From Eledone cirrhosa (Eukaryota), in NCBI GenBank assembly GCA_964016885.1, contig CAXHJY010001278.1, positions 1 through 33,734 on the forward strand: a stretch of DNA of 33,734 nucleotides, given 5' to 3'. This document shows positions 218 through 28,633 of this stretch, one piece after another. The position numbers were made by a program, and so were the translations under genes. Positions within the stretch are counted from its first letter, which is position 1. Each line of letters starts with the position of its first letter. The notes under the pieces are model-generated. The model did no database searches, was not told the origin of the DNA, and was given only the letters and a program-made list of their open reading frames with translations.

Positions 218-273
218 ATATAATATATAAAGTTAAATAAAAGTCAAATGATTAAAATTTAGCTTCGTTTATT

Positions 274-328
274 ACTGCTATATATATTTCAGTGACAGCC
301 ATCTTTGGCTGTGACCTCTTCAGGCAGT
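274..328 (-). ncRNA. Type I hammerhead ribozyme, inverted copy
   Basis: Reverse complement of 487-541 with intact core and fully paired acagcca/tggctgt distal stem II. Confidence 0.85.
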
Positions 329-486
329 TTGAATTAGTATGGTTTAGACAAGTACATATGTTGTTTAGGTGTATGATATTGTCAATACTCTGATATACAA
401 CCCAACAAGGAACTGGGCATATCAGAGTATTGACAATATCATACACCTAAACAACATATGTACTTGTCTATACCATACTAATTCAA

Positions 487-541
487 ACTGCCTGAAGAGG
501 TCACAGTCAAAGATGGCTGTCACTGAAATATATATAGCAGT
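487..541 (+). ncRNA. Type I hammerhead ribozyme (family 1 pLTR)
   Basis: Stem I actgc(487-491)/gcagt(537-541); core CTGAAGA 492-498; stem II ggtcacagtca-aaga-tggctgtcact; GAAA 525-528; palindromic stem III ATATATAT; predicted cleavage after A536. Confidence 0.85.
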
Positions 542-689
542 AATAAACGAAGCTAAATTTTAATCATTTGACTTTTATTTAACTTTATTTTACACTACTC
601 CGGAGTAACCAAACCAACCTGCGCACTTCGTTGAGTGCTCCAGCCTGCATACTGAGGTGTTGGTATACAACCAACATAAACTCAAAATC

Positions 690-6534
<5,845 letters not shown>

Positions 6535-7610
6535 GTTTTCTCTTTCTCTTAATTTCGAGTATATTTTTTTGACCGGCCACCTTCCTGGTGGCAAGGTTGT
6601 AAAAGAAAAGAAATTGTCATCCCTTGAATCGCAAGAATGTTTTGCATATTTTGAAGGTGCCAGCTATCGCAGCCATTTGTAGACTATGAATTAGGGAGCT
6701 GCGCTTTTTGTCCGCAAATCCAAGTTCGGTCATACTTTGGTCCAAGCGGGTTGGTATATAACCCGTAGCACCAATAATGATGGGTATGAAGCTAAAGGTG
6801 TATCTTGGATACTGGATTTGTAAGCTCCTCATCAATGGTCCGTAGATGTCCTCCTTCTCCTGTATTTTTCTGACAACGTTTACATCAAGTGGGCAGCTGA
6901 TCTCCACAACAGAACACGTTTTCAATGTGTGGTCCCAAACTACAATATCAGGCCGGTTGTGCTTTAATTTGGTGGCAGTTTTTATTTCAGGTTCCACCAG
7001 TATTCCTTAGTGCCATCTGTCTCAATATATTCTTCCTCGTTTGTTGTTAATTTTGTTTTCCGAAGTGCGTTCCAGATAGTTCTAGCTATCCCATCGTGTC
7101 TCATGGGGAGGTAGTAGCGAGATGACATTCTTTCGCAGCTGGCAACAATGTGGCTTACATCCTCGATCTTTGTTTTACATAGCCTACATTTATTGTCAGC
7201 TGCTGGCCCTCCTCTTTTGTGCAGCAGATATTTGGTAGGGAGTTCTTGTTCCTGTATTGCATAGAGATATCCCTCAAGGTGTGATGTCATAAACTTGTCG
7301 GAACTCCATGCCAGGCTTTTTGAGTGGTTTATCCCCTCTATGGTCTGTGTTTTACGCCTCAAGTATCCATGCACAACTTTCTCTGTAAATTGGTCAATTT
7401 TTTTTTCTTGTTTGAACATTGAATAGGATCTTCCGATTGCTCTGGGTGAGAGATTTATATCAGGCTTTATTCCATATCTCTCCTCCAGATCAGTCGCTAT
7501 TCTAATGATATTTCTTTTTTCATGCTCATAAACCTGAGCAAGATGGTCGCCAACCTTTTTCCTCTGTTGAAGGTGTTGCTTCAGTGTTACTATCCGGGTC
7601 TCATATGTTG
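6535..7610 (-). mobile_element. 5'-truncated R4/Dong-like non-LTR retrotransposon (C-terminal CCHC knuckle + restriction-like endonuclease), one frameshift near 6990, short 3' UTR
   Basis: ORFs 6982-7419 and 6617-6997: [56 protein letters not shown]; reading frame stays open upstream to ~7610. Confidence 0.88.
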
Positions 7611-8077: not shown

Positions 8078-8378
8078 GTATGTATGTATGTATATGTATG
8101 TATATATATGTATATGTATGTATATATATATATATGTGTATATATATATATATGTATGTATATATATGTATATGTATGTATATATATATATATGTGTATA
8201 TATATATATATACGTATATATATGTATGTATATATATATATGTATGTATATATATATATATATGTATATATATGTATGTGTATATATATATATATGTATG
8301 TATATATATATATATATGTATATATATGTATGTGTATATATATATATATGTATGTGTATATATATATATATGTATGTG

Positions 8379-8411
<33 letters not shown>

Positions 8412-8663
8412 GTATGTATATGTAAATATATGTATGTATATTATATATATATGTATATATATGTATGTATATGTAAATATATGTATGTATATATATATAT
8501 TATGTATATATATATGTATGTATTATGTATGTATATATATATGTATGTATATATATATGTATATATATATATGTATATATATGTATGTATATATATGTAT
8601 ATATATGTATGTATATATATATATATATATATATGTTTGTATATATATATATATATATGTATG

Positions 8664-8696: not shown

Positions 8697-9585
8697 CATC
8701 ATCATCATCACGCTTGCATGGGTTTGGACGGGGGTAGTCCCGTGTTCCACGCTTGCATGGGTTTGGACGGGGGTAGTCCCACTTGAGGCAAGAGTGATTG
8801 TCTTGCTCGCATAGGACTGTCTGGCAGGTTTTCTACAGTTGGATGCCCTTCCTAACACCAACCACATTTACAGTGTGTGTCTGGGAGGTTTTTACCGTGT
8901 TGCCTACACGGCCACATTACAGCGTGGACTGTGTGTTTTTTTGTCGTGACACCTACACGATCTCATTTGTTTCGGCCTGGATGGCGCGGCACCAACATAA
9001 CTTTACATAGAACGGGGTGGTGTGGATCGGGTGGGGGTGGTGGTGGTGGGACGGGGTGTATTTTGTTAGAGATGCCTACTGGCTGGAGTAGGTTTTACTA
9101 TATATTTAGGTAAGGCGGGTCTTCTCTGTTACTGAGTACCGCCAAAGGTCTCGGTCCAGTGACATTGTCTTGGAGAGGTGTAAGTGTGTGATGTCGGAGT
9201 TTATCAGCTCGTCCCAGGTTTTTCTAGGTCTGCCTATTCCGTGACTACCGTCTATCTTTATTGCCCTGCACTTTGTTATACAGCTATCGACTTTCATGCG
9301 CATCACGTGTCCATACCAACGTAGCCTTCTCTCGAGTAAACAACATCTGATCCCTCTTATCTCTAATTTTTTCCTTAGTCGTTTATGCTTTGCCGTTCAC
9401 GTATATTACTGTTACACATCCAGCGGAGCATGCAAGCTTCGTTCCTCTCTAGTCTGTGTATATCCTCTGCACACAATGCCCAGGTCTCGCTGCCATGCAG
9501 CATTGCTGTTCGTATGCAGGCATCGTACAACCTGCCTTTCATTTTTAGTGAGAACCCTTTAGCAGCTAATAGTGGTATAAGCTCT
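8695..9585 (-). mobile_element. 5'-truncated RTE LINE copy (subfamily A) with (GAT)n tail
   Basis: Near-identical reverse complement of ~17298-18183 ([11 protein letters not shown]...TEKTRLT + 3' UTR); small frameshift near 9377; duplicated 3' terminus. Confidence 0.93.
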
Positions 9586-9953: not shown

Positions 9954-9959
<6 letters not shown>

Positions 9960-10222
9960 AATGAATAATAACAGGTAGACATCATAAAAAGGTAATTTAT
10001 TCCGTGTGCTTACAAATGTTTCCACTGTGGTTATACAGCCTAGTTATGCTATGTGTAAATTTACAACTATTTGCAAAACTCAAATATCAAATGCTGTGAC
10101 CACTGTATCATCAGAGGAATGCCAATCACCGGGATACAATAGAATACATTGATAAGAATCTCCATAACACACATAGCTCTACACGAAATCAAGGAATACG
10201 TAACTGGGGGACTAAAATACAA

Positions 10223-11065
10223 GTGCACACACGCAGTACCACCAGACATACTAATAATAGAAAATCACCACCAAATAAATCACGTTGTAGAAAGTATATC
10301 TGGTATAATCCTATTTTTAATGCCTCCATTTGTACAAAACTATCTCTTTCATTCTTTAAGTTAATCAACAAGCATTTCCCTAGTTCCCATAAATACAGTA
10401 AAATTCTGAACTCTAAAACTATTAGACTATCATACTCCATGGCACCAAACCTTGAAGCATACATAAAAAAACTTAACTTAAAGCAATTAAAGAAAACTAC
10501 AAAACAAAATATTTTGGTAACAGATGGGCAGAACGTAATATCTGCCTCCCAACCACTAAATGGGAGACGGGTATTACACAACCCACCTGTACCGCTATCA
10601 TAACCTATCCATGGTATACCCGCTACCCACAACAAAAACTGTTACTACCATCTACCTGAAAGATGTCCATTGAAGAATGAATGCCTAAAGTCCAACATTG
10701 TTTAGCAATGCACGGTTGAATCGAACGACCAGAAATGGTATTACATTGGGTCTACCACCACCTCGTTTAAATCTCGCTGGTACCGTCATCGATTCTCAAT
10801 TAAACATCCTGATCACCGTTTTGTGACCACGCTCGCCAACAAGACCTAGCAACTTCGTGAACGCAACCAACAGTTCACCTTAAAATGGGATATACGTTCC
10901 AGCGCAAGTGCATATCGGAGTGGATTGAAGTACTGCAGGTTATGTAACCTTGAACTCTTTTACATCTTAAAATCCAAAAATAAACTACTTAACGATAGAA
11001 TCGAACGATCATTATACTGCAACTACAAACTAAAAGCTAAATTCTCTCACTATAAAATAACTTAA
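10223..11065 (+). pseudogene. Decayed PLE C-terminal region (linker + GIY-YIG endonuclease)
   Basis: One reading frame from 10223 to TAA at 11063-11065, interrupted by in-frame TAA (10601) and two TAG codons; NIV*QCTV...YYIGST GIY-YIG-like signature. Confidence 0.8.
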
Positions 11066-11550: not shown

Positions 11551-11662
11551 TGCTCTGATGATACAGTGGTCACAGCATTTGATATTTGAGTTTTGCAAAT
11601 AGTTGTAAATTTACACATAGCATAACTAGGCTGTATAACCATCGTGGAAACATTTGTAAGCA
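11551..11662 (+). ncRNA. Type I hammerhead ribozyme with long stem II insert (Nematis-like pLTR)
   Basis: Stem I tgct/agca; CTGATGA 11555-11561; stem II tacagtggt...accatcgtg (imperfect) enclosing ~65 nt; GAAA 11647-11650; stem III ACATTTGT; GTA cleavage triplet ending at 11658. Confidence 0.7.
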
Positions 11663-11873
11663 CACGGAATAAATTACCTTTTTATGATGTCTACCTGTTA
11701 TTATTCATTCTTTATCTACACTCCGGAATACAGAAGGATCAGGAACTAAGTTTCTTCAACAATTCTTCCATAATTCGTTGAGTAACCCCTCACCGTACGT
11801 CAACCATATCCAGTGTAGTAATTAACCATTACTGCATCTAGGATAATCCTATACCTAATATATATATATATAT

Positions 11874-13816
11874 ATATTGTTATACTTTGGGGGGGGGGGG
11901 GTCATGTTGCCAATAAGAAACACACGCACCAGTTGCTTTCACTTCAATTTATTATAATAAATTTATAAATTTAGGAATTTATAAATTTCCGGTTGGTTGG
12001 TTCCACAACCAGGTGGTTGTTTATATATTGTCAAAGTTCTTTCGTCACACATTCTCTGACCTCTTTAGTGACTGGAGATTCTTTTCTTTGTTTTATATGC
12101 CTCTCCTTTGTTCTGTCTTACGCCATCTTATTTTTGTGTGTGTGTTGTGTGCTTAGTTTGTGCAAGTGTTACATCCGGGTGTCTGTGTGTTTATATTTAT
12201 TTATTTATTTGTTTATTTACATGTTACTGGTTGGTTGTTTGTTCTATGTGCATTTGTGTTTTCATTTTGTCCTTAATTGTAGGTTGTGATGTTGCTGTTC
12301 CACTCATGTTTTCTATTTAATTTTGGTTGTAATTCATTTATGTTTATTGCCTCTGTGATTTGTCTAAACATTGCGTCTTTTCTGTGTGTAGATTCTATTT
12401 TTATTACTATGTTCTCTAATTTACCCTTATGTTCTATTTTAGCATGTTGGTAGAGTACAGATGATTCTTTACTATCTTGAAGGTCTCGCCAGTGTTTATT
12501 TATCCGTTCCCCTATACTACGAGCTGTCTCACCTATGTACACTATATTTTTATCTCTACATTGTCCTTCAGTACATCTTATGCTATATACTACATTTCTA
12601 GTTTTACAGTTAATATGGGGATTTATTTACAGATTATACATTTCTTATCTATACTGGGAGGTCTTTGAAAAGAGTATAATTCACCTCTAGGGGTTGTCTC
12701 GATGAACATTACACTCTGGTATTTTTTGCTATCATACCATGAGTTTATTCTATTAGCCTTGTTCCTAGTTCTTTCTATTCTATTCCAAAATGTGCTCCTA
12801 TACAAGGGGCAGGTCCCATTTATGTCATTATTTACCATTTTTTCCTATTTGGTTCTGGCTCCTCTATACACTCTGATTTTATCTCTCTGATTGTAACCAG
12901 AGAACTGCATACGGTGGATGAAGTGTTGTATGTGTCTCTCTAGTTCTTCGGGGTTGCACATGCGGGACACGTTTTTCATCACCCGTACCAAATCCGCAAT
13001 CAGTATGTTGATTTTGGTATGGTCCGAAACAGCTGAGTTTCGGTGGATCAGATATTTGGAAGTCATGGGTTTGGCATAATGGGAATGGAGGATTTGTTTT
13101 TTGTTATTAATGGTATCTAACCAGAGCTCTGTGTCTAGTACAGGTAATCGATGGTTGGGGTGTTTGCTTGGGTAGTCTATAGTAACTCTAATACTCTGGT
13201 GGATGGAGTTAGCTATTTACTGGATGCTTTCCATTGTGTTTTTCTCTAATTCCTGACTGTTCTCTAGTGGGGGTGTTTTAACTACGATGTTTATATCATC
13301 GACGTAGCGGGAGTACATTATCAGGGTTAAGGGGTCTTCTAATTGTTCTTTGAGTTTAAGTTTAAGTCTACTGTCCCACCATACCATGAATAGGTGAGCT
13401 ATGTCGCCTGCAATGCTAACACCAATGGCTGCTCCCTCCTCTTGGGCATATGTTTTTCCATTAAATTTGAACATATGTTCCTTAAGGGTTAATTTTATGC
13501 TGGCCCCCACCGCATGTGCAATCATTTTCTTTAGTTCATCGTGGTTTTCGGGGGTCCGTATGGCTCTGGTCCTCCCGTTCCATCTATCTGTGTGGGTTTT
13601 CTTGGCCATTGAGGTAATGGTAGGTGGTCTGCCTCTTGCTGGTCTTGTAGGGCACAGGTTGCTAAGGTCATATGTGTCTAGATAATTATTACTATAGGTA
13701 AGTTTAAGTAGGAGTCCCAGCTCACTGGTATCAATCCCACGGAATTCAACATTGATATCGGTTTCAACACACGTTTTCAGATAAGGAATCTTGCTAAACA
13801 AATTCAGAAACGAAAT
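11874..13816 (-). mobile_element. 5'-truncated, decayed Penelope-like element (probably Hydra-like clade): RT + GIY-YIG, 3' UTR/pLTR 11874-12272, tail placed inverted at 13755-13816
   Basis: ORF pieces 13217-13756 (QEEGAAIG..AGDIAHLFMVWWD, YSRYVDD), 12845-13066, 12623-12838, 12273-12542 (NVVYSIRC..C...YIGETARS..ER..H..H, E..N); pLTR matches 27283-27530. Confidence 0.85.
12030..12073 (-). ncRNA. Degenerate hammerhead ribozyme (core CTAAAGA, likely inactive)
   Basis: Homologue of 27328-27372 with G5->A in the core, a stem II mismatch and a CTT triplet. Confidence 0.6.
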
Positions 13817-14975
13817 CATCATCATCATCATCATCATCATCGTTTAACGTCCCTGTTCCACGCTTGCATGGGTTTGGACGGGGGTTTTCCCACTTGAGGC
13901 AAGAGTGGTTGTCTTGCTCGCATAGGACTGTCTGGCGGGTTTTCTACAGCTGGATGCCCTTCCTAACACCAACCACATTTACAGTGTGGGACTGGGAGGT
14001 TTTTACCGTGTTGCCTACACGGTCACATTACAGCGTGGACTGTGTGTTTTTTTGTCGTGACACCTACAAGATCTCGTTTGTTTCGGCCTGGATGTTGTGG
14101 CACCAACATAACTTTGCATTGAAGGGGGCGGTGTGGATGGGGTGGGACGGGGGTGTATTTTGTTAGAGATGCCTACTGACTAGTAGGTTTTACTTTGTAT
14201 TTAGGTGAGGCGGGTCTTCTCTGTTACTGAGTACCGCCAAAGGTCTCGGTCCAGTGACATTGTCTTGGAGAGGTGTAAGTGTGTGAGGTCGGAATTTATC
14301 AGCTCGTCCCAGGTTTTCCTGGGTCTGCCTACTCCGTGGCTACCGTCTATCTTTATTGCCCTGCACTTTGTTATACAGCTGTTGTCTTTCATGCGCATCA
14401 CGTGACCATACCAACGTAGCCTTCTCTCGAGTAAACAACATCTGATCCCTCTTATTTCTAATTTTTTCCTTAGTTCGTTTATGCTTTGCCGTTCACGTAT
14501 ATTACTATTACACATCCAGCGGAGCATGCAAGCTTCGTTCCTCTCTAGTCTGCGTATATCCTCTGCACACAATGCCCAGGTCTCACTGCCATGCAACATT
14601 GCTGTTCGTGTGCAGGCATCATACAACCTGCCTTTCATTTTTAGGGAGAACCCTTTAGCGGCTAATAGTGGTATAAGCTCTCTGAACTTTTTCCATCCAG
14701 TTCTGACTCTAGTTACTGTACTTTCAGAGCATCCTCCCCCACTGCTGATTTTGTCACCCAGGTAACGGAAGCTGTCCACTATTTCTATAGAACCATCTGC
14801 GCAATTGAAAGAGTTAGTGTTTTGTGGGCACTTGCTGCAACTTATTGCACCAGAACACCGGCCACATGTAAAATCTGTGTTCTTAGTTAGCTTACCTGTG
14901 ATCCCACTACATCTTTTATGCACCCATACTTTGCATTTGGGACATAAAATGGAATTTCTACCTATGCCTTTCCTA
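13815..14975 (-). mobile_element. 5'-truncated RTE LINE copy (subfamily B) with (GAT)n tail
   Basis: Encodes [14 protein letters not shown]...TEKTRLT*, slightly diverged from 15397-17778; 3' UTR shares diagnostic bases with 26509-26658. Confidence 0.93.
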
Positions 14976-15268: not shown

Positions 15269-18183
15269 TACCTATATAACTATCTGTAACACTAACTTCA
15301 ACTAACTTCAAAAAACGTGACAATCACCTGATCACCTATAGATCCGGGGAACACACAAGCCAGGTAGATTATATCCTTACCAGAAGACGTGACAGAGTGT
15401 CTGTTGTTAACACTAAATCCCTCCCCCATGAAGAATGCACCTCCCAACATAGACTGATAATTAGCGACCTCATAGTCAGGACGAGACGTACTCGACAACA
15501 GAAGAGGACTATCCTCAGGAGGAAAATATGGAAGCTAAAGGACCCCACAGCCAGGAATAAATTTCAAAGCATATTACTTGATGCTTTCGACAGTAAGGAA
15601 GAACATTTAGAGTCGGACAATATAGAGGGAGAGTGGGAATTTCTGAAAGCAAACCTGCTGTTGGCGACAGACGAGGTCTGTGGCTGGAGCAGGCCTGTAG
15701 GCAGGAGGAGAGTAACATGGTGGTGGAACAGTAAGGTGGAGGGGTCAATTAAGGCCAAAAAGCAGGCTTGGAAAGTATGGCGGGATGGGGGAAGTAGAGA
15801 GGACTATCAAGTGGCCAGGAGGGAAGCTAGGAGACAAGTGTACTTAGCAAGAAGGGAAGCTGAGGAAAGAAAGTTCAAGCATGTTCTACAACGCGATGAC
15901 CAAAAACGTGAGGTGTTCAGGATTGCTAGGCAATGCGTCAAGGAAAACCGTGATATTGTCGGGGAGAAGTGTGTACTAAACGACGATGGCACACTTGCCA
16001 TCACCGACGCTGATAAGAAGGTAGCTTGGAAGTGTCACTATGAAAGGCTTCTAAATGAGGAGAATAATTGGGAGAAAGGCAGTCTCCCCCATATCGACCC
16101 AATAGAGGGACCAGCAGTGTTAGTCGAGGGGAGTATAATAAGTAAGGCAATCAAGGATATGAAGACTGGTAAGGCGGCTGGGCCTTCGGAAATAGTTGCT
16201 GAGATGCTGAAGGCATCTGGCACGGTGGGACACACCATGGTCACCCGCATAGTTAACCAAGTCGTACAGAATGGGGTTGTTCCGAAGGACTGGCATAGCA
16301 GCATCATCGTTAACTGTTATAAGGGTAAAGGAGACGCCCTAGATAGGAGTAACTATAGAGGCATTAAATTAATCGACCAGGTCATGAAGGTCACGGAAAG
16401 AGTAATAGCGCAACTAATCAGAGAGAGAATTGACCTAGATGAAATGCAGTTCGGGTTTGTGTCAGGCAAAAGTACCACAGACGCTCTTTTCATAGTACGA
16501 CAACTACAGGAGAAGTACCTAGCTAAAGGTAAACCCCTCTACTTAGCTTTTGTCGACTTGGAGAAAGCCTTCGACAGAGTCCCCCGCTCCATTATCTGGT
16601 GGGCTCTTAGAAAACTAGGCGTTGACGAATGGCTTGTGAGGGCTATACAAGCCATGTATAAAGAAACAGTCAGCAAGGTTAGAATTAACAACGAATATAG
16701 TGAAGAGTTTAGCGTAAAAGTCGGCGTCCATCAGGGCTCTGTTCTCAGTCCACTACTATTTATTATTGCCCTTCAGGCTATAACAGAGGAGTTCAAGACA
16801 GGCTGCCCATGGGAACTCCTATACGCAGACGACCTGACACTCATAGCGGAATCAATGGCCGAGCTAGAGAAGAAATTCCAAACATGGAAGCACGGCCTAG
16901 AGTCAAAAGGACTTAAAATTAACCTGGCTAAGACCAAAGTACTAGTTTGTAGGAAAGAAAACAAGGCGGCGGTCCCTTCTGGGAAATGGTCGTGCTCGGT
17001 GTGTAGGAAAGGCGTAGGTAGAAACTCCATTTTATGTCCTAAATGCAAAGTATGGGTGCATAAAAGATGTAGTGGGATCACAGGTAAGCTAACTAAGAAC
17101 ATAGATTTTACATGTGGCCGGTGCTCTGGTGCAATAAGTAGCAGCAAGTGCCCACAAACTACTAGCTCTTTCAATTGCGCAGAGGGTTCTATAGAAATAG
17201 TGGACAGCTTCCGTTACCTGGGCGATAAAATCAGCAGTGGGGGAGGGTGCTCTGAAAGTACTGTAGCTAGAGTCAGAACTGGTTGGAAAAAGTTCAGAGA
17301 GCTTATACCACTATTAGCTGCTAAAGGGTTCTCACTAAAAATGAAAGGCAGGTTGTACGATGCCTGCATACGAACAGCAATGCTGCATGGCAGTGAGACC
17401 TGGGCATTGTGTGCAGAGGATATACGCAGACTAGAGAGGAACGAAGCTTGCATGCTCCGCTGGATGTGTAACAGTAATATACGTGAACGGCAAAGCATAA
17501 ACGAACTAAGGAAAAAATTAGAGATAAGAGGGATCAGATGTTGTTTACTCGAGAGAAGGCTACGTTGGTATGGACACGTGATGCGCATGAAAGTCGATAG
17601 CTGTATAACAAAGTGCAGGGCAATAAAGATAGACGGTAGTCACGGAATAGGCAGACCTAGAAAAACCTGGGACGAGCTGATAAACTCCGACATCACACAC
17701 TTACACCTCTCCAAGACAATGTCACTGGACCGAGACCTTTGGCGGTACTCAGTAACAGAGAAGACTCGCCTTACCTAAATATATAGTAAAACCTACTCCA
17801 GCCAGTAGGCATCTCTAACAAAATACACCCCGTCCCACCACCCCCACCCCCACCCGATCCACACCACCCCGTTCTATGTAAAGTTATGTTGGTGCCGCGC
17901 CATCGAGGCCGAAACAAATGAGATCGTGTAGGTGTCACGACAAAAAAACACACAGTCCACGCTGTAATGTGGCCGTGTAGGCAACACGGTAAAAACCTCC
18001 CAGACCCACACTGTAAATGTGGTTGGTGTTAGGAAGGGCATCCAACTGTAGAAAACCTGCCAGACAGTCCTATGCGAGCAAGACAATCACTCTTGCCTCA
18101 AGTGGGACTACCCCCGTCCAAACCCATGCAAGCGTGGAACACGGACGTTAAACGTTGATGATGATGATGATGATGATGATGAT
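15269..18183 (+). mobile_element. RTE-clade LINE (subfamily A), truncated inside the APE endonuclease, with intact RT region, ~400-nt 3' UTR and (GAT)n tail
   Basis: End of APE domain ([24 protein letters not shown]...SQHRLII), WWWN, RT motifs, [16 protein letters not shown]; GAT repeat tail 18157-18183. Confidence 0.95.
15301..17778 (+). CDS. RTE LINE ORF (partial APE endonuclease, reverse transcriptase, embedded C4HC3 PHD-type finger)
   Basis: Open frame from 15301 (ORF track 15397-17778); [45 protein letters not shown]. Confidence 0.93.
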
Positions 18184-19382
<1,199 letters not shown>

Positions 19383-21925
19383 CAGCCTCTGGCAGGGAAG
19401 CAGTGGAATCACTTCTTGACTTCATGGATGATTTCTTCCTATCCCAACTGGTGCTCGAACCAACGAGGTGCCACAAAAACGTCCTAGACTTAATTTTCAG
19501 CAATCACACTGACAATATCCACAATATTGCAGTGGAGAAAACTCTACTCTCTGATCATGACATGGTTCTCTGTGATCTGAGATTCCACCGTCCAATATAC
19601 AAACCCAATGTCATCTCTCCTGTCCATCCGTTTGACGCTATGGATTTCCACAATGCAAACTGGGAAGCGATCAGTCATGATCTTGCACATGTCGACTGGT
19701 CCTTCACGCACACTCATACACCCACTAACATCAAAAAGTCCTGGCAGACATTTGTGGACACTGTTACAAACATATGTGCAAAACACACCCCATTAAGAAC
19801 TATAAACAAATCTAAGAGCAGAATCCCTAGAAATAGAAAAACGCTCATCAGAAAAATTAAGAGAACGAACAAAAAAATCAACAAGCTGAAATACTGTCAG
19901 CAGCAACACATCAACTTGACTGCCATTTCATCACTAGAGATTAAAAAACATAACCTCCAAAACAACATAATGTCCCTCATCAACAATCAGAGAAGAGCTG
20001 AAGAGGCCTGGGCCATTGAGAAGATCAAACTCAATCCCAAAGTGTTCTTTTCATTTGCAAAAAAACACAAAATCACTGGCTCTACTGTTGGCCCTCTAAT
20101 TGATGAAAATGGCACTCTTCAAGACAATGCTAAAACCATGGGTGAGATACTGCAGAAACAATACTGCTCTGTTTTCAGCAATCCTGATATGGCCGATCTG
20201 GGCTGTATCGGCGATGTTACTCCCCATTACACCTTATCGGACATAACGTTTGGCGCCCCTGATGTCTTAGCGGCAATAAAGGAAATCAAGCATAATTCAG
20301 CAGTAGGTCCCGATAGGTTCCCTGCTTGTGTCTTGAAGGCGTGTCAACACCAACTTGCATCTCCTCTTGCCAATCTGTGGCGGAACTCACTGGATGCTGG
20401 ATATGTGCCAGAAAACCTTCTATCCCAGTCTGTTGTCCCAGTTTTCAAAAAGGGAAACAAATCCCTTGCCGTGAATTACCGTCCAATCTCACTCACCTCT
20501 CATATCATTAAGGTATTTGAGAGAGTGGTGAGATCGCGAATGACCCACTTCCTTGAGAGTAACAATATGCTGAACTCCAACCAGCATGGATTCCGTAATG
20601 GAAGGGATTGCCTGACGCAGCTACTGCATCACTTTGATGACATTTTGAGAGCCTTGGGAGAGGGTTCCAACACTGATGTTATCTACCTTGATTTCAGCAA
20701 GGCCTTTGACAGGGTTGATCATAACATTCTACTGAGAAAGCTGTCCAATATTGGTGTCACTAGAAAGCTGCTGCAGTGGATCAAGAGCTTCCTGTCAAAT
20801 AGAACCCAACATGTTGTAGTTGAAGGAGTCAAATCCAGCCCAGCCAAAGTCAGTAGTGGGGTCCCACAAGGCACTGTGTTGGGCCCACTTCTCTTCATCA
20901 TCTATATTAATGACATCACTGACATCATCAAACACAGCAACATTAAAATTTTCGCTGATGATTCCAAGCTCCAAAAGGTCATCAATGGCGTGGATGACCG
21001 GATAAGCCTTCAGTCAGACCTACTGGCTGTTACCCAATGGGCGGAAAAGAACAACATGTTACTGAACGAAGACAAATTCGAACTGATCCACTTTGGAAAA
21101 GAGGATGCTCTGAAACTCCCGTACTCCCTTCCCTCCGGGGAAACTCTCGTGGCATCTAACAACATCAGAGACTTGGGAGTAACCGTGGACAGCAACATAA
21201 GCTGGGCCACGCATATAAGCAGCAAAGTTGACATGGCCCGCAGAATGTGTTCCTGGATCCTCAGAACCTTCCAGTCGAGAGATTCCCACACCATTATCCT
21301 TCTCTTCTCTACTTTTGCCCGACCACACCTTGAATACTGTTGTCCACTGTGGTCTCCCCACACGAAACAAAGTATCATGAAACTTGAAGCTTCTCAAAGG
21401 GCAATCACGAAAAAGATAGATGGCATGTCAGACCTTGACTACTGGGGTCGACTAGAAAACCTGAAACTTTACTCACTCCAACGTCGCCGTGAGCGTTATA
21501 TTATCTGCATGATGTGGAAAATGTTCCATCAACACTGCCCAAATGATGTTGGCATCGCCTTCAAGATACACCCAAGGCTTGGGCCCCGTGCTATCCGTCC
21601 CATTCAAAAATCTAAATCGCAACACATAACAACAATACGGCACAATTATTTCACCTCAATCGGCCCTGCTCTCTTCAACATCACACCAGGACACGTCAAA
21701 ACAGAAACTGACCACACAAAATTCAAGAAGTCTTTGGACAAATTCCTCCAAGTAATCCCGGACAAACCACCCACACCCGGATATGTCTCCGCAAACAGTA
21801 ATTCTCTTCTCGAATGGGCCATGGTGCCCAAATCCTGAATTGAAAGACTTCGCCAGGTGGTGCTATTAAGTTAGACATGGCCTGGGCCAATACTGGCCAA
21901 AACATTTCAAAGTTATTCAAAGTTA
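19383..21925 (+). mobile_element. 5'-truncated CR1-like LINE, copy 1
   Basis: ORF 19403-21838; short 3' UTR with ggcca-atac-tggcc hairpin and (TTCAAAGTTA)x2 tail. Confidence 0.92.
19403..21838 (+). CDS. CR1-like ORF2 (end of APE endonuclease + reverse transcriptase), N-terminally truncated
   Basis: [91 protein letters not shown]. Confidence 0.92.
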
Positions 21926-21989: not shown

Positions 21990-22582
21990 GTTTTGCGAGG
22001 TTTTTTATATGAAATCGTGTGTCGAAACAAATATTGTTATACTTGGGGAGGGTCATATTTGTGTAATATTGCCAGAATTAATAACAGAACACACTCACTG
22101 TTTGGTTGGTTTTCGCTTCTCACTTCTGTGTCTTTTATATCGGTAATCTAACTTACTCGGTCCTCAATGTTGCCATAAACATACACTAGTCACCCATCAC
22201 ACAGCAAACAAAATACTATACACACACGCAAACGCATGCGCAAAGAAGACAAAATAAAATAATCAAACAAGCAAATAAATAAATAAATATATAGACAGAC
22301 TGAATAAAAATGGCGTAGACATACAATACAACAGGAGGAAAAGATAGCACCACTGAAAGATTTATGCAACGAAAGATTTATGATAAACTATATATATGTG
22401 TTTGTGTCTATATTGTATCTGTATTATTTTTGACCGTCGTTCAGTCAATGGCAACATTGAGGACCGAGTAAGTTAGATTACCGATATAAAAGACACAGCG
22501 AGAAGCGAAAACCAACCAAACAGTGAGTGTGTTCTGTTATTAATTCTGGCAATATTACACAAATATGACCCTCCCCAAGTAT

Positions 22583-23134: not shown

Positions 23135-25665
23135 CAGCCTCTGGCAGGGAAGCAGTGGAATCACTTCTTGACTTCATGGATGATTTCTTCCTATCCCAAC
23201 TGGTGCTCGAACCAACGAGGTGCCACAAAAACGTCCTAGACTTAATTTTCAGCAATCACACTGACAATATCCACAATATTGCAGTGGAGAAAACTCTACT
23301 CTCTGATCATGACATGGTTCTCTGTGATCTGAGATTCCACCGTCCAATATACAAACCCAATGTCATCTCTCCTGTCCATCCGTTTGACGCTATGGATTTC
23401 CACAATGCAAACTGGGAAGCGATCAGTCATGATCTTGCACATGTCGACTGGTCCTTCACGCACACTCATACACCCACTAACATCAAAAAGTCCTGGCAGA
23501 CATTTGTGGACACTGTTACAAACATATGTGCAAAACACACCCCATTAAGAACTATAAACAAATCTAAGAGCAGAATCCCTAGAAATAGAAAAACGCTCAT
23601 CAGAAAAATTAAGAGAACGAACAAAAAAATCAACAAGCTGAAATACTGTCAGCAGCAACACATCAACTTGACTGCCATTTCATCACTAGAGATTAAAAAA
23701 CATAACCTCCAAAACAACATAATGTCCCTCATCAACAATCAGAGAAGAGCTGAAGAGGCCTGGGCCATTGAGAAGATCAAACTCAATCCCAAAGTGTTCT
23801 TTTCATTTGCAAAAAAACACAAAATCACTGGCTCTACTGTTGGCCCTCTAATTGATGAAAATGGCACTCTTCAAGACAATGCTAAAACCATGGGTGAGAT
23901 ACTGCAGAAACAATACTGCTCTGTTTTCAGCAATCCTGATATGGCCGATCTGGGCTGTATCGGCGATGTTACTCCCCATTACACCTTATCGGACATAACG
24001 TTTGGCGCCCCTGATGTCTTAGCGGCAATAAAGGAAATCAAGCATAATTCAGCAGTAGGTCCCGATAGGTTCCCTGCTTGTGTCTTGAAGGCGTGTCAAC
24101 ACCAACTTGCATCTCCTCTTGCCAATCTGTGGCGGAACTCACTGGATGCTGGATATGTGCCAGAAAACCTTCTATCCCAGTCTGTTGTCCCAGTTTTCAA
24201 AAAGGGAAACAAATCCCTTGCCGTGAATTACCGTCCAATCTCACTCACCTCTCATATCATTAAGGTATTTGAGAGAGTGGTGAGATCGCGAATGACCCAC
24301 TTCCTTGAGAGTAACAATATGCTGAACTCCAACCAGCATGGATTCCGTAATGGAAGGGATTGCCTGACGCAGCTACTGCATCACTTTGATGACATTTTGA
24401 GAGCCTTGGGAGAGGGTTCCAACACTGATGTTATCTACCTTGATTTCAGCAAGGCCTTTGACAGGGTTGATCATAACATTCTACTGAGAAAGCTGTCCAA
24501 TATTGGTGTCACTAGAAAGCTGCTGCAGTGGATCAAGAGCTTCCTGTCAAACAGAACCCAACATGTTGTAGTTGAGGGAGTCAAATCAAGCCCAGCCAAA
24601 GTCAGTAGTGGAGTCCCACAAGGCACTGTGTTGGGCCCACTTCTCTTCATCATCTATATTAATGACATCACTGACATCATCAAACACAGCAACATTAAAA
24701 TTTTCGCTGATGATTCCAAGCTCCAAAAGGTCATCAATGGCGTGGATGACCGGATAAGCCTTCAGTCAGACCTACTGGCTGTTACCCAATGGGCGGAAAA
24801 GAACAACATGTTACTGAACGAAGACAAATTCGAACTGATCCACTTTGGAAAAGAGGATGCTCTGAAACTCCCGTACTCCCTTCCCTCCGGGGAAACTCTC
24901 GTGGCATCTAACAACATCAGAGACTTGGGAGTAACCGTGGACAGCAACATAAGCTGGGCCACGCATATAAGCAGCAAAGTTGACATGGCCCGCAGAATGT
25001 GTTCCTGGATCCTCAGAACCTTCCAGTCGAGAGATTCCCACACCATTATCCTTCTCTTCTCTACTTTTGCCCGACCACACCTTGAATACTGTTGTCCACT
25101 GTGGTCTCCCCACACGAAACAAAGTATCATGAAACTTGAAGCTTCTCAAAGGGCAATCACGAAAAAGATAGATGGCATGTCAGACCTTGACTACTGGGGT
25201 CGACTAGAAAACCTGAAACTTTACTCACTCCAACGTCGCCGTGAGCGTTATATTATCTGCATGATGTGGAAAATGTTCCATCAACACTGCCCAAATGATG
25301 TTGGCATCGCCTTCAAGATACACCCAAGGCTTGGGCCCCGTGCTATCCGTCCCATTCAAAAATCTAAATCGCAACACATAACAACAATACGGCACAATTA
25401 TTTCACCTCAATCGGCCCTGCTCTCTTCAACATCACACCAGGACACGTCAAAACAGAAACTGACCACAAAATTCAAGAAGTCTTTGGACAAATTCCTCCA
25501 AGTAATCTCGGACAAGCCACCCACACCCGGATATGTCTCCGCAAACAGTAATTCTCTTCTCGAATGGGCCATGGTGCCCAAATCCTGAATTGAAAGACTT
25601 CGCCAGGTGGTGCTATTAAGTTAGACATGGCCTGGGTCAATACTGGCCAAAACATTTCAAAGTTA
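23135..25665 (+). mobile_element. 5'-truncated CR1-like LINE, copy 2 (tandem duplicate; 2-bp deletion near 25465 frameshifts the C-terminus)
   Basis: Same 5' junction atatcagcctctgg; ORF 23155-25551 identical in protein to copy 1 up to ...KTETDH. Confidence 0.92.
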
Positions 25666-27282: not shown

Positions 27283-27589
27283 AGGATAGAAGAAAGGAAA
27301 GGCACAGAAACGAAGAAAGAAATCCCCAGTCACTGAAGAGGTCACAGAGTGTGTGACGAAAGAACTATGACTATATATATATAAACAACTATCTGGTTGT
27401 GGAACCAACCAACCAACCAGAAATTTATAAATTTGTAAATTTATAAATATATAATAAATTAAATTGAAGTGAAAGCAACTGGTGCGTGTGTTTCTTATTG
27501 GCAACATGACCCTCCCAAAGTATAACAATATCGGTTTCAACACACGATTTCAGATAAAGAATCTTGCTAAACAAATTCAGAAATGAAAT
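27283..27589 (+). mobile_element. Solo PLE pLTR + tail (same family as 11874-13816)
   Basis: 27283-27530 matches the reverse complement of ~11874-12115; 27528-27589 matches 13755-13816. Confidence 0.87.
27328..27372 (+). ncRNA. Minimal type I hammerhead ribozyme
   Basis: Stem I agtca/tgact; CTGAAGA 27333-27339; extra G; stem II gtcaca/tgtgac; GAAA 27358-27361; short stem III AGAACT; CTA triplet ending at 27367. Confidence 0.82.
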
Positions 27590-28595: not shown

Positions 28596-28633
28596 CCTTT
28601 ACCGGTTTCGCAGTTCTTCTGCTTTTCAAAAGG
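28596..28633 (-). ncRNA. Minimal type I hammerhead ribozyme with U3/A8 variant core
   Basis: Minus strand reads CCTT-TTGAAAA-GCAG-aagaa-CTGC-GAAA-CCGG-TA-AAGG: stems I and II paired, palindromic ACCGGT stem III, GTA triplet. Confidence 0.8.

Follow-up and report, generated by a model that had tools for sequence, protein, structure and literature searches.

A duplicated bulged hairpin motif at the copy ends of Hydra-clade Penelope-like elements, a candidate anchor for the internal start of reverse transcription

Cis-acting RNA structures that recruit their own reverse transcriptase include epsilon of hepadnaviruses and the 3' untranslated region of R2; epsilon is a bulged stem-loop from inside whose bulge protein-primed synthesis begins, and R2 starts at the RNA 3' end. 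Among Penelope-like elements (PLEs), the Poseidon element PAc was reported to initiate reverse transcription internally in vitro on AT-rich nicked DNA, at two sites bounding its tail, with RNA downstream of these starts being required (Frangieh 2024, PMC11167929; statements on this and the other cited papers refer to those parts of them that were available). PAc shares with the elements described here two fixed copy ends downstream of the hammerhead of the terminal repeat (pLTR), with an optional tail between them, and an AT-rich target. It belongs to another clade, however, its starts are in an AC-rich stem-loop within the ORF and a binding motif has only been hypothesised for it, whereas Hydra elements have a covarying hairpin in duplicate, located in the 5' untranslated region on the 3' side of each end. 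No RCUC/UY-GAGY stem was seen by eye in the Poseidon RNA of Figure S1B of that paper. The Hydra clade was described as consisting of short units with a C-terminal GIY-YIG endonuclease, a CxCX5C linker, a hammerhead and a (TA)n target (Craig et al. 2021, PMC8557442), but the available account describes only the hammerhead and mentions no second RNA element. The minimal hammerheads of PLEs (Cervera and De la Pena 2014, PMC4209133) are separate from the motif considered here, which lacks a hammerhead core. Matters open for PLEs are the choice of the internal start site, the optional tail and the reported need for tandem copies, the reason for which is likewise open (PMC11167929, PMC8557442, PMC2377424).

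The stretch analysed here (the window) comprises 33,734 nt of Eledone cirrhosa DNA, contig CAXHJY010001278.1, and is animal DNA rich in (TA)n microsatellites with fragments of several retrotransposons between the runs (Table 1). A molluscan, perhaps cephalopod, source is also what the abundance of microsatellite and the bivalve-associated names found for relatives of one ORF would suggest. Four hammerhead-bearing PLE ends were identified, namely those of family 1, family 2, a third family and an end with a U3-A8 variant hammerhead. Stem III is a palindromic TA in family 1 and a CCGG palindrome in the U3-A8 variant, a core that is known from Cercyon elements (PMC4209133). The third family possesses a conserved extension common to two subfamilies, and its copy near 12070 has a mutated hammerhead core. 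The first 15 bases of the hammerheads of family 1 (492-506) and the third family (27333-27347) are identical, with the repeats being otherwise unalignable. An AATAAA is situated 5-10 nt past the hammerheads of families 1 and 2 (542-547, 11668-11673), as it is in many Hydra-type relatives, and is a possible polyadenylation signal. The family 1 copies at 397 and 32850 have identical start points, which suggests a fixed 5' end, either a transcription start or that of a short non-autonomous element. Two LINE-type reverse transcriptase copies of 2.5 kb, 99.6% identical, lie in tandem (19386-21910, 23138-25660), reflecting either a recent duplication or an assembly artefact. Judging from their translations, we take 15280-17778, 13820-14973 and 8740-9582 to be an RTE-like LINE, with an open frame of 832 codons and partial copies in inverted orientation, and 6617-7006 with 8270-8499 to be another non-LTR element in pieces with a microsatellite between them.

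Table 1. Features of the PLE families in the window
Feature	Position	Strand	Basis or remark
Family 1 terminal repeat (pLTR), reaching the short-copy end	397..592	+	99% match to 32850-33041; shared sequence until 592
Inverted short copy of family 1 pLTR, makes a palindrome	230..396	-	self-BLAST
Family 1 type I minimal hammerhead	488..540	+	descriptor scan; core 492, predicted cut after 536
Family 1 motif, 5' strand (lower stem ACUC, upper stem CGGA)	597..604	+	
Family 1 motif, 3' strand (UUCG, bulge 631-632, GAGU) and 3' flank GCUCC	627..641	+	
Family 1 spacer hairpin, family-specific	653..684	+	z -2.5
Family 1 tail, (TA)n at its end	593..686	+	loose ends onto (TA)n at 685 in read run X1
Tail-less family 1 copy	32850..33045	+	stops 4 nt short of motif position
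Family 2 ORF, broken 3' part, Hydra-clade (thumb, linker, GIY-YIG region)	10124..11065	+	stops and frameshift
Family 2 type I hammerhead, long stem II	11551..11662	+	descriptor scan; core 11555, predicted cut after 11658
Family 2 motif, 5' strand	11720..11727	+	
Family 2 motif, 3' strand	11774..11783	+	3' flank deviates from RCUNU consensus
Family 2 spacer hairpin, family-specific	11807..11845	+	z -4.0
Family 2 tail, (TA)n at its end	11716..11856	+	
Inverted tail-less copy of family 2 pLTR	9954..10121	-	stops 4 nt short of motif position
Neptune-like PLE ORF	29959..32846	-	tie to family 1 unproven
U3-A8 variant hammerhead, tail without motif	28596..28633	-	1.3 kb downstream of Neptune-like ORF
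Third PLE family	11885-13843, 21992-22578, 27285-27587		own two-end structure; without motif

Two words, ACTCCGGA (at 597 and 11720) and TTCGTTGAGT (at 627 and 11774), are shared by the tails of families 1 and 2, with no further occurrence of either on the + strand of the window. They stand where an earlier note on this DNA had placed them and pair as it described (ACUC with GAGU, a 2-nt bulge, CGGA with UUCG). In family 1 the pairs are 597-600/633-636 and 601-604/627-630, so that the fold has a lower and an upper stem of 4 bp each, the latter including one G-U, with a bulge of 2 nt on the 3' side. Among 3000 dinucleotide shuffles of both tails, none had two ordered shared words summing to 18 letters (best 17). 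The motif flanks of the two families are unalignable (local score 33 against a shuffle mean of 28 and maximum of 47). In both families the motif begins 60 (family 1) and 61 nt (family 2) past the cut site of the type I hammerhead and 4 nt beyond the end of the short inverted copy. It lies just past the boundary of pLTR and tail as the earlier note had it, but the boundary positions given there, 588 and 11711, are 4 nt short, since shared sequence continues to 592 and 11715. The UU bulge holds for the window sequence; in contigs of very high summed depth from read run X1, however, position 632 is C in about 98% of depth, so that most family 1 copies have UC and the 10-letter identity between the families is partly luck. 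No variant of at least 5% was listed at the 16 paired positions of the family 1 motif in this run. The motif was found to be absent from the window's third family and from the U3-A8 end. Folded alone, the motif regions are weak (z -0.5 to -0.7); in the context of the tail the lower stem has a pair probability of about 0.07, and constraining the fold costs 1.1 and 0.3 kcal/mol.

The label Nematis-like that family 2 had been given is wrong; the family groups with Hydra-clade elements and on sequence grounds appears to belong to that clade. In a tree of 68 endonuclease domains, a quick version based on that domain only, family 2 was placed within a 50-row clade of motif-bearing elements (SH-aLRT 96, with a long end branch) and apart from Neptune-like rows. 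Its endonuclease is 24-37% identical to those of motif-bearing elements and 16% identical to that of the Neptune-like ORF. These relatives were gathered using the broken ORF of family 2; HMMER found them, while a word-index protein search with the endonuclease did not. They possess the CxCX5C linker, CxxC and CxH around conserved E and N, and DKT (the last in P0192 and P0256; together with RWK it belongs to the N-terminal half, which the 5'-truncated window copy lacks), features which were described for the Hydra clade (PMC8557442), and one family of genome bin G008 matches by eye the 3' end of Hydra-2_Amil in that paper. The linker of family 2 reads C-Y-Y-X5-C, the second cysteine of the motif that is invariant in the relatives being lost in this broken copy; CxxC is present before the conserved E, and the CxH position reads C-N-Y, both being intact in the relatives. 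The pLTR of family 2 has a canonical hammerhead and is inserted into (TA)n, as in the Hydra clade. Of the Nematis features, a CX2-5CxxC linker and a CCHH endonuclease motif, no CxxC was found before the GIY-YIG motif of family 2, which by eye is unlike the Nematis rows of Figure S2 of Craig et al.

No family 1 ORF in sense orientation was found within the window. The base after the hammerhead GAAA is U in family 1, C in 26/26 motif-bearing families and U in seven of 13 Neptune-like or other families. The copy at 32850 adjoins the 5'-truncated Neptune-like ORF, whose linker resembles the Neptune rows of Craig's Figure S2, in opposite orientation. Past this ORF there is no family 1 sequence, a different hammerhead being found instead 1.3 kb downstream, which weakens the proposal that family 1 is the ORF's own repeat.

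Relatives of the motif-bearing elements were obtained from animal DNA in genome bins (80 stretches of bin G008) and from metagenomes. The bins G008, G005, G004, G002 and G003, all GTDB representatives, contain much animal DNA, with dozens to more than 100 PLE matches. In 77 metagenome loci, drawn from the best 80 of 502 matches to one alignment and therefore related and possibly from few host groups, the motif was identified at 40 of the 55 hammerheads linked to Hydra-type ORFs and in 27 of 34 Hydra-type families. The 15 hammerheads without it comprise eight at contig ends, four of short copies, two of truncated copies from motif-bearing families and one of a Neptune-type neighbour; among the seven families without it, six lack that stretch and one is the Neptune-type neighbour. 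The background was 14/2800 in shuffles and 43/5000 in random windows. PLE hammerheads sit 36-73 nt upstream of the first motif copy. By eye, three of the six Hydra consensus sequences in File S7 of Craig et al. carry the canonical motif (one from a coral and two from a sea cucumber, one of these with a tandem pair before the start), a copepod sequence has purine-bulge variants, one of them with a compensated lower-stem pair, and an octopus sequence has an imperfect candidate; the remaining sequence, which stops short of the motif site, has no copy.

The consensus consists of an RCUC lower stem, an upper stem that covaries and ranges from one pair to eight or more, a 2-nt 3' bulge (UU, UC or UA), GAGY and an RCUNU flank; about 21 nt are conserved and the loop can be as short as 4 nt. 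Among 45 motif-bearing elements the identity between endonuclease domains is 33-100% (median 53%). The alignment held one row per family and copy (48 rows), 4 of 66 rows found by regular expression having first been dropped as nested or spurious pairings. In it 96.7% of cells are paired, and two-sided changes numbered 45 compared with 16.4 in shuffles (0/500 reaching this; the same on 94 rows), these shuffles ignoring relatedness and the first upper pair having been part of the search descriptor. Upper pairs 2 and 3, outside the descriptor, pair in 34/44 and 26/29 rows, and both show five pair types. There is hardly any variation in the lower stem, which is GCUC/GAGC in 46 of 48 rows; the ACUC/GAGU of the two window rows is a compensated change and, together with the copepod case, the only covariation there. 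RNAalifold returned the lower stem only, with a covariation term of 0. Absence of the motif from related PLE tails, lack of covariation, or two tails that are alignable close homologues, any of which the earlier note held to count against it, was not encountered. Upper stems contain G-U 5 times against A-C 3 times and the antisense fold is better in 27/48 rows, so that the strand that folds may be either the sense RNA or its complement.

The earlier note had also described a further hairpin in each tail. These are real in the window (Table 1) but not general, since only four of 28 spacers reached z <= -2, two of them being the window's own, and a second hairpin was rejected as a general feature.

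The motif is not PLE-wide. It was found in none of 13 Neptune-like or other families, ten of which have sequence beyond the short end. A covariance model of the motif gave no match in four other genome bins (150 candidates scored in each), and its single match among 33 mostly Neptune-like loci was to a Hydra-type element from another host. Exact-word matches in viral contigs (eight loci, none with a PLE protein) were dismissed as chance; in five host-contaminated genome bins exact words gave four matches, not above control and none in G008. No viral relatives of the Neptune-like ORF were found. The Neptune-like tails of three G008 families (L172, - strand, near cut 80; L183, + strand, near 2107; L221, + strand, near 1609) form long hairpins starting 6-9 nt past the short end, with a 3' strand resembling GAGU and without the canonical bulge or lower stem; these are possible distant counterparts and were left out of the motif counts. 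A non-Hydra PLE family of bin G007 (L311, L315, L335) has GAGC followed by ACUGU and no 5' strand, about 70 nt past the hammerhead cut and about 25 nt before the start codon.

Both window copies were missed by the covariance model made from short-loop copies, because they enclose 30 and 54 nt, compared with 6-17 nt in the relatives. A profile trained on the 46 other rows, with no window rows and with long loops allowed, ranked the family 1 copy first and the family 2 copy second of 3119 candidate sites in 42,854 nt (third and fourth without flanks), with scores of 12.3 and -2.7 that lie under the training range of 20.4-36.4. The words might instead be unrelated to the Hydra hairpin and be due to coincidence, to a short open reading frame or to splicing. 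Besides the failure of the covariance model, the difference of 24 nt between the gaps of the two families, with one frame open in both, and a pyrimidine tract with UACAG nearby in family 2 speak for this. Against it stand the profile ranks, the placement of the words as expected relative to hammerhead and copy end, and enclosed lengths in relatives that take every value from 6 to 17 nt, so that no frame is kept; on this variation the coding and splice readings were rejected, and we regard an unrelated origin of the words as highly improbable. From the ranks and the position, the window motifs are likely homologous to the Hydra hairpin, less firmly for family 2 given its atypical 3' flank, and both would be long-loop versions of the first motif copy of the relatives.

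Full-length units were found to hold two motif copies spaced 55-74 nt apart (27 units), with the ORF starting 10-27 nt past copy 2 in 25 of the 27. Truncated copies were aligned to longer family members, and the junctions of short copies onto microsatellite fall 1-6 nt before copy 1 (17/17) and those of tailed copies 0-5 nt before copy 2 (18/18); these distances include TA microhomology, and the true junctions may lie a few bases further upstream. The motif therefore marks the position of both copy ends, with the short pLTR ending before copy 1 and the pLTR with its tail before copy 2. Family 1 has a matching pair of end sites, since loose ends leading into (TA)n occur in read run X1 at 592 and 685. 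Junctions off microsatellite (11 in the short-copy set, eight in the tailed set) range from -22 to 88 nt and are mostly contig ends or places where alignment breaks down between diverged subfamilies, though one at least, 30 nt before copy 2, is a genuine truncation. Of 273 TA steps, 183 lie beyond the two 9-nt windows, unused as ends; a calculation by hand over about 18 family-and-site combinations gives 0.33 to the 18th, or about 2e-9, a value that is overstated given the relatedness of the families. Positions -8 and -6 are enriched in TA (19/48 each compared with 3-12 elsewhere).

The location of both copies in the 5' untranslated region, the second of them just before the start codon, together with an internal promoter of Penelope in the same region (PMC2377424), might indicate that the motif serves cap-independent translation of the uncapped RNA left by the hammerhead cut, or forms part of an internal promoter. 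This would leave the 35/35 microsatellite junctions just upstream of the motif unexplained, and compensatory changes argue against a site in double-stranded DNA. As the main function it seems improbable; it could be a second role.

The motif holds a fixed position relative to the cDNA ends, and its upper stem shows compensatory pairing, as befits a priming signal. Judged from sequence, we consider it rather probable that the hairpin anchors the reverse transcriptase and sets the start just 5' of itself, with two hairpins giving two starts and the tail lying between them. The reverse transcriptase-endonuclease of the Hydra clade would bind the hairpin in the 5' untranslated region and nick (TA)n target DNA, whose freed end would pair with AU-rich bases 5-8 nt upstream of the hairpin, fixing the start about 3-9 bases upstream of it. 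Copying would run away from the hairpin, leaving the one used uncopied. The two starts would yield the short and the tailed copy, the tail being the spacer between the hairpins. As each linear round would lose one hairpin, a lineage of linear copies would pass from two (the tandem unit) to one (the tailed copy) to none (the short copy), and both would be retained only on tandem or circular templates; we infer that this loss would explain the need for such templates. For full-length family 1 elements a second motif copy is predicted just past the tail. The earlier suggestion of a conserved element tied to the internal start site agrees with the covariation and the junction positions, while binding by the reverse transcriptase is an expectation drawn from them.

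Copy ends alone cannot separate a start site from a cut site. The GIY-YIG endonuclease might read the motif in DNA, be it single-stranded cDNA, an RNA-DNA hybrid or an extruded hairpin, and cut a few bases upstream, trimming or resolving an insertion intermediate, in which case the ends would be cut sites. Craig et al. attribute the tail to endonuclease-mediated resolution (PMC8557442), and earlier work on Drosophila virilis, as cited in PMC11167929, found the tail to be needed for endonuclease recognition of plasmid DNA. Either strand may be the one that folds, and the 3' strand with its flank (GAG-YR-CTN) is near-palindromic, though this is weakened by a free fourth flank base (C 30, T 8, G 7, A 3 of 48). 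About five motif copies have a 5' boundary no more than 12 nt from the motif, after microsatellite, as a cut would leave them, but the 5' boundaries of the other orphan copies are scattered. Since short copies lack the motif altogether, the enzyme would have to act on the donor or the template, and internal starts were measured directly on RNA (Frangieh, PMC11167929). Cutting of any of these DNA forms is for these reasons held to be unlikely, although it is the strongest rival to the anchor reading.

RNA cleavage just upstream of the motif, by a second small ribozyme or a protein nuclease that it guides, with the resulting 3' end then priming the start, would also account for ends that keep a constant, short spacing 5' of the motif. 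HDV-like ribozymes cut at their own 5' edge, a placement that these ends resemble, and invariant unpaired bases lie beside the stem. On the other hand, the conserved part measures about 21 nt with loops down to 4 nt, and to our knowledge the known self-cleaving ribozyme classes are all larger; no base is conserved at the putative cut, the offset differs among families and Rfam gives no match. We find such cleavage quite improbable, and the second ribozyme that the earlier note had offered as an option is unlikely.

For an anchoring hairpin, telomerase RNA offers a parallel. Its template boundary element is likewise a short helix with conserved foot bases, bound by a related reverse transcriptase, that fixes a template edge, and its alignment region is a short stretch that pairs with the primer (PMC4993307). 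The telomerase helix, however, lies 5' of the template and stops synthesis, whereas the Hydra hairpin is found 3' of what is copied and would determine where synthesis begins; the two are likened by position and role and not by sequence or structural homology. Like that boundary element, the hairpin could instead be a stop signal, on an antisense RNA template. An antisense template was once proposed for PLEs (PMC3846280), and the antisense strand folds at least as well. The fixed ends nevertheless adjoin the (TA)n target and the other ends are variably truncated, as expected of starts, and sense RNA was the template in vitro (PMC11167929), all of which makes a stop signal on antisense RNA very improbable.

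The two motif regions were searched separately against Rfam 15, a search of the whole window having been swamped by microsatellite matches (as judged from the 150 of 356 matches listed), and gave no match near a gathering score (best E 1.7 and 4). In eight motif-bearing loci there was no match with E up to 1, and as the hammerheads were missed as well, the sensitivity of this search is limited. A full-text literature search found no account of any second RNA element, either in the tails of PLEs or in Hydra elements. The motif is apparently undescribed, and by analogy would work like the known cis-acting signals that recruit a reverse transcriptase; in contrast to epsilon and R2, Hydra elements have a duplicated signal, with their copy ends located upstream of the stem.

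A minimal covarying RNA element that predicts both copy ends in a whole clade makes the question of start-site choice testable with few mutants. For annotation, the motif is useful in marking element boundaries and start codons. Because the reverse transcriptases of PLEs are the closest relatives of telomerase, a template-positioning helix in PLEs would bear on the origin of telomerase RNA elements. More tentatively, and with less confidence than the anchor itself, it is conceivable that a duplicated 21-nt RNA anchor acts as a start-site ruler across PLE clades, with family 1 being either Neptune-type or mobilised in trans, and that this explains the tail as well as the dependence on templates that are tandem or circular. 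If true, the hairpin may be a portable tag with which the Hydra protein could be made to copy any RNA, starting at an internal site of choice.
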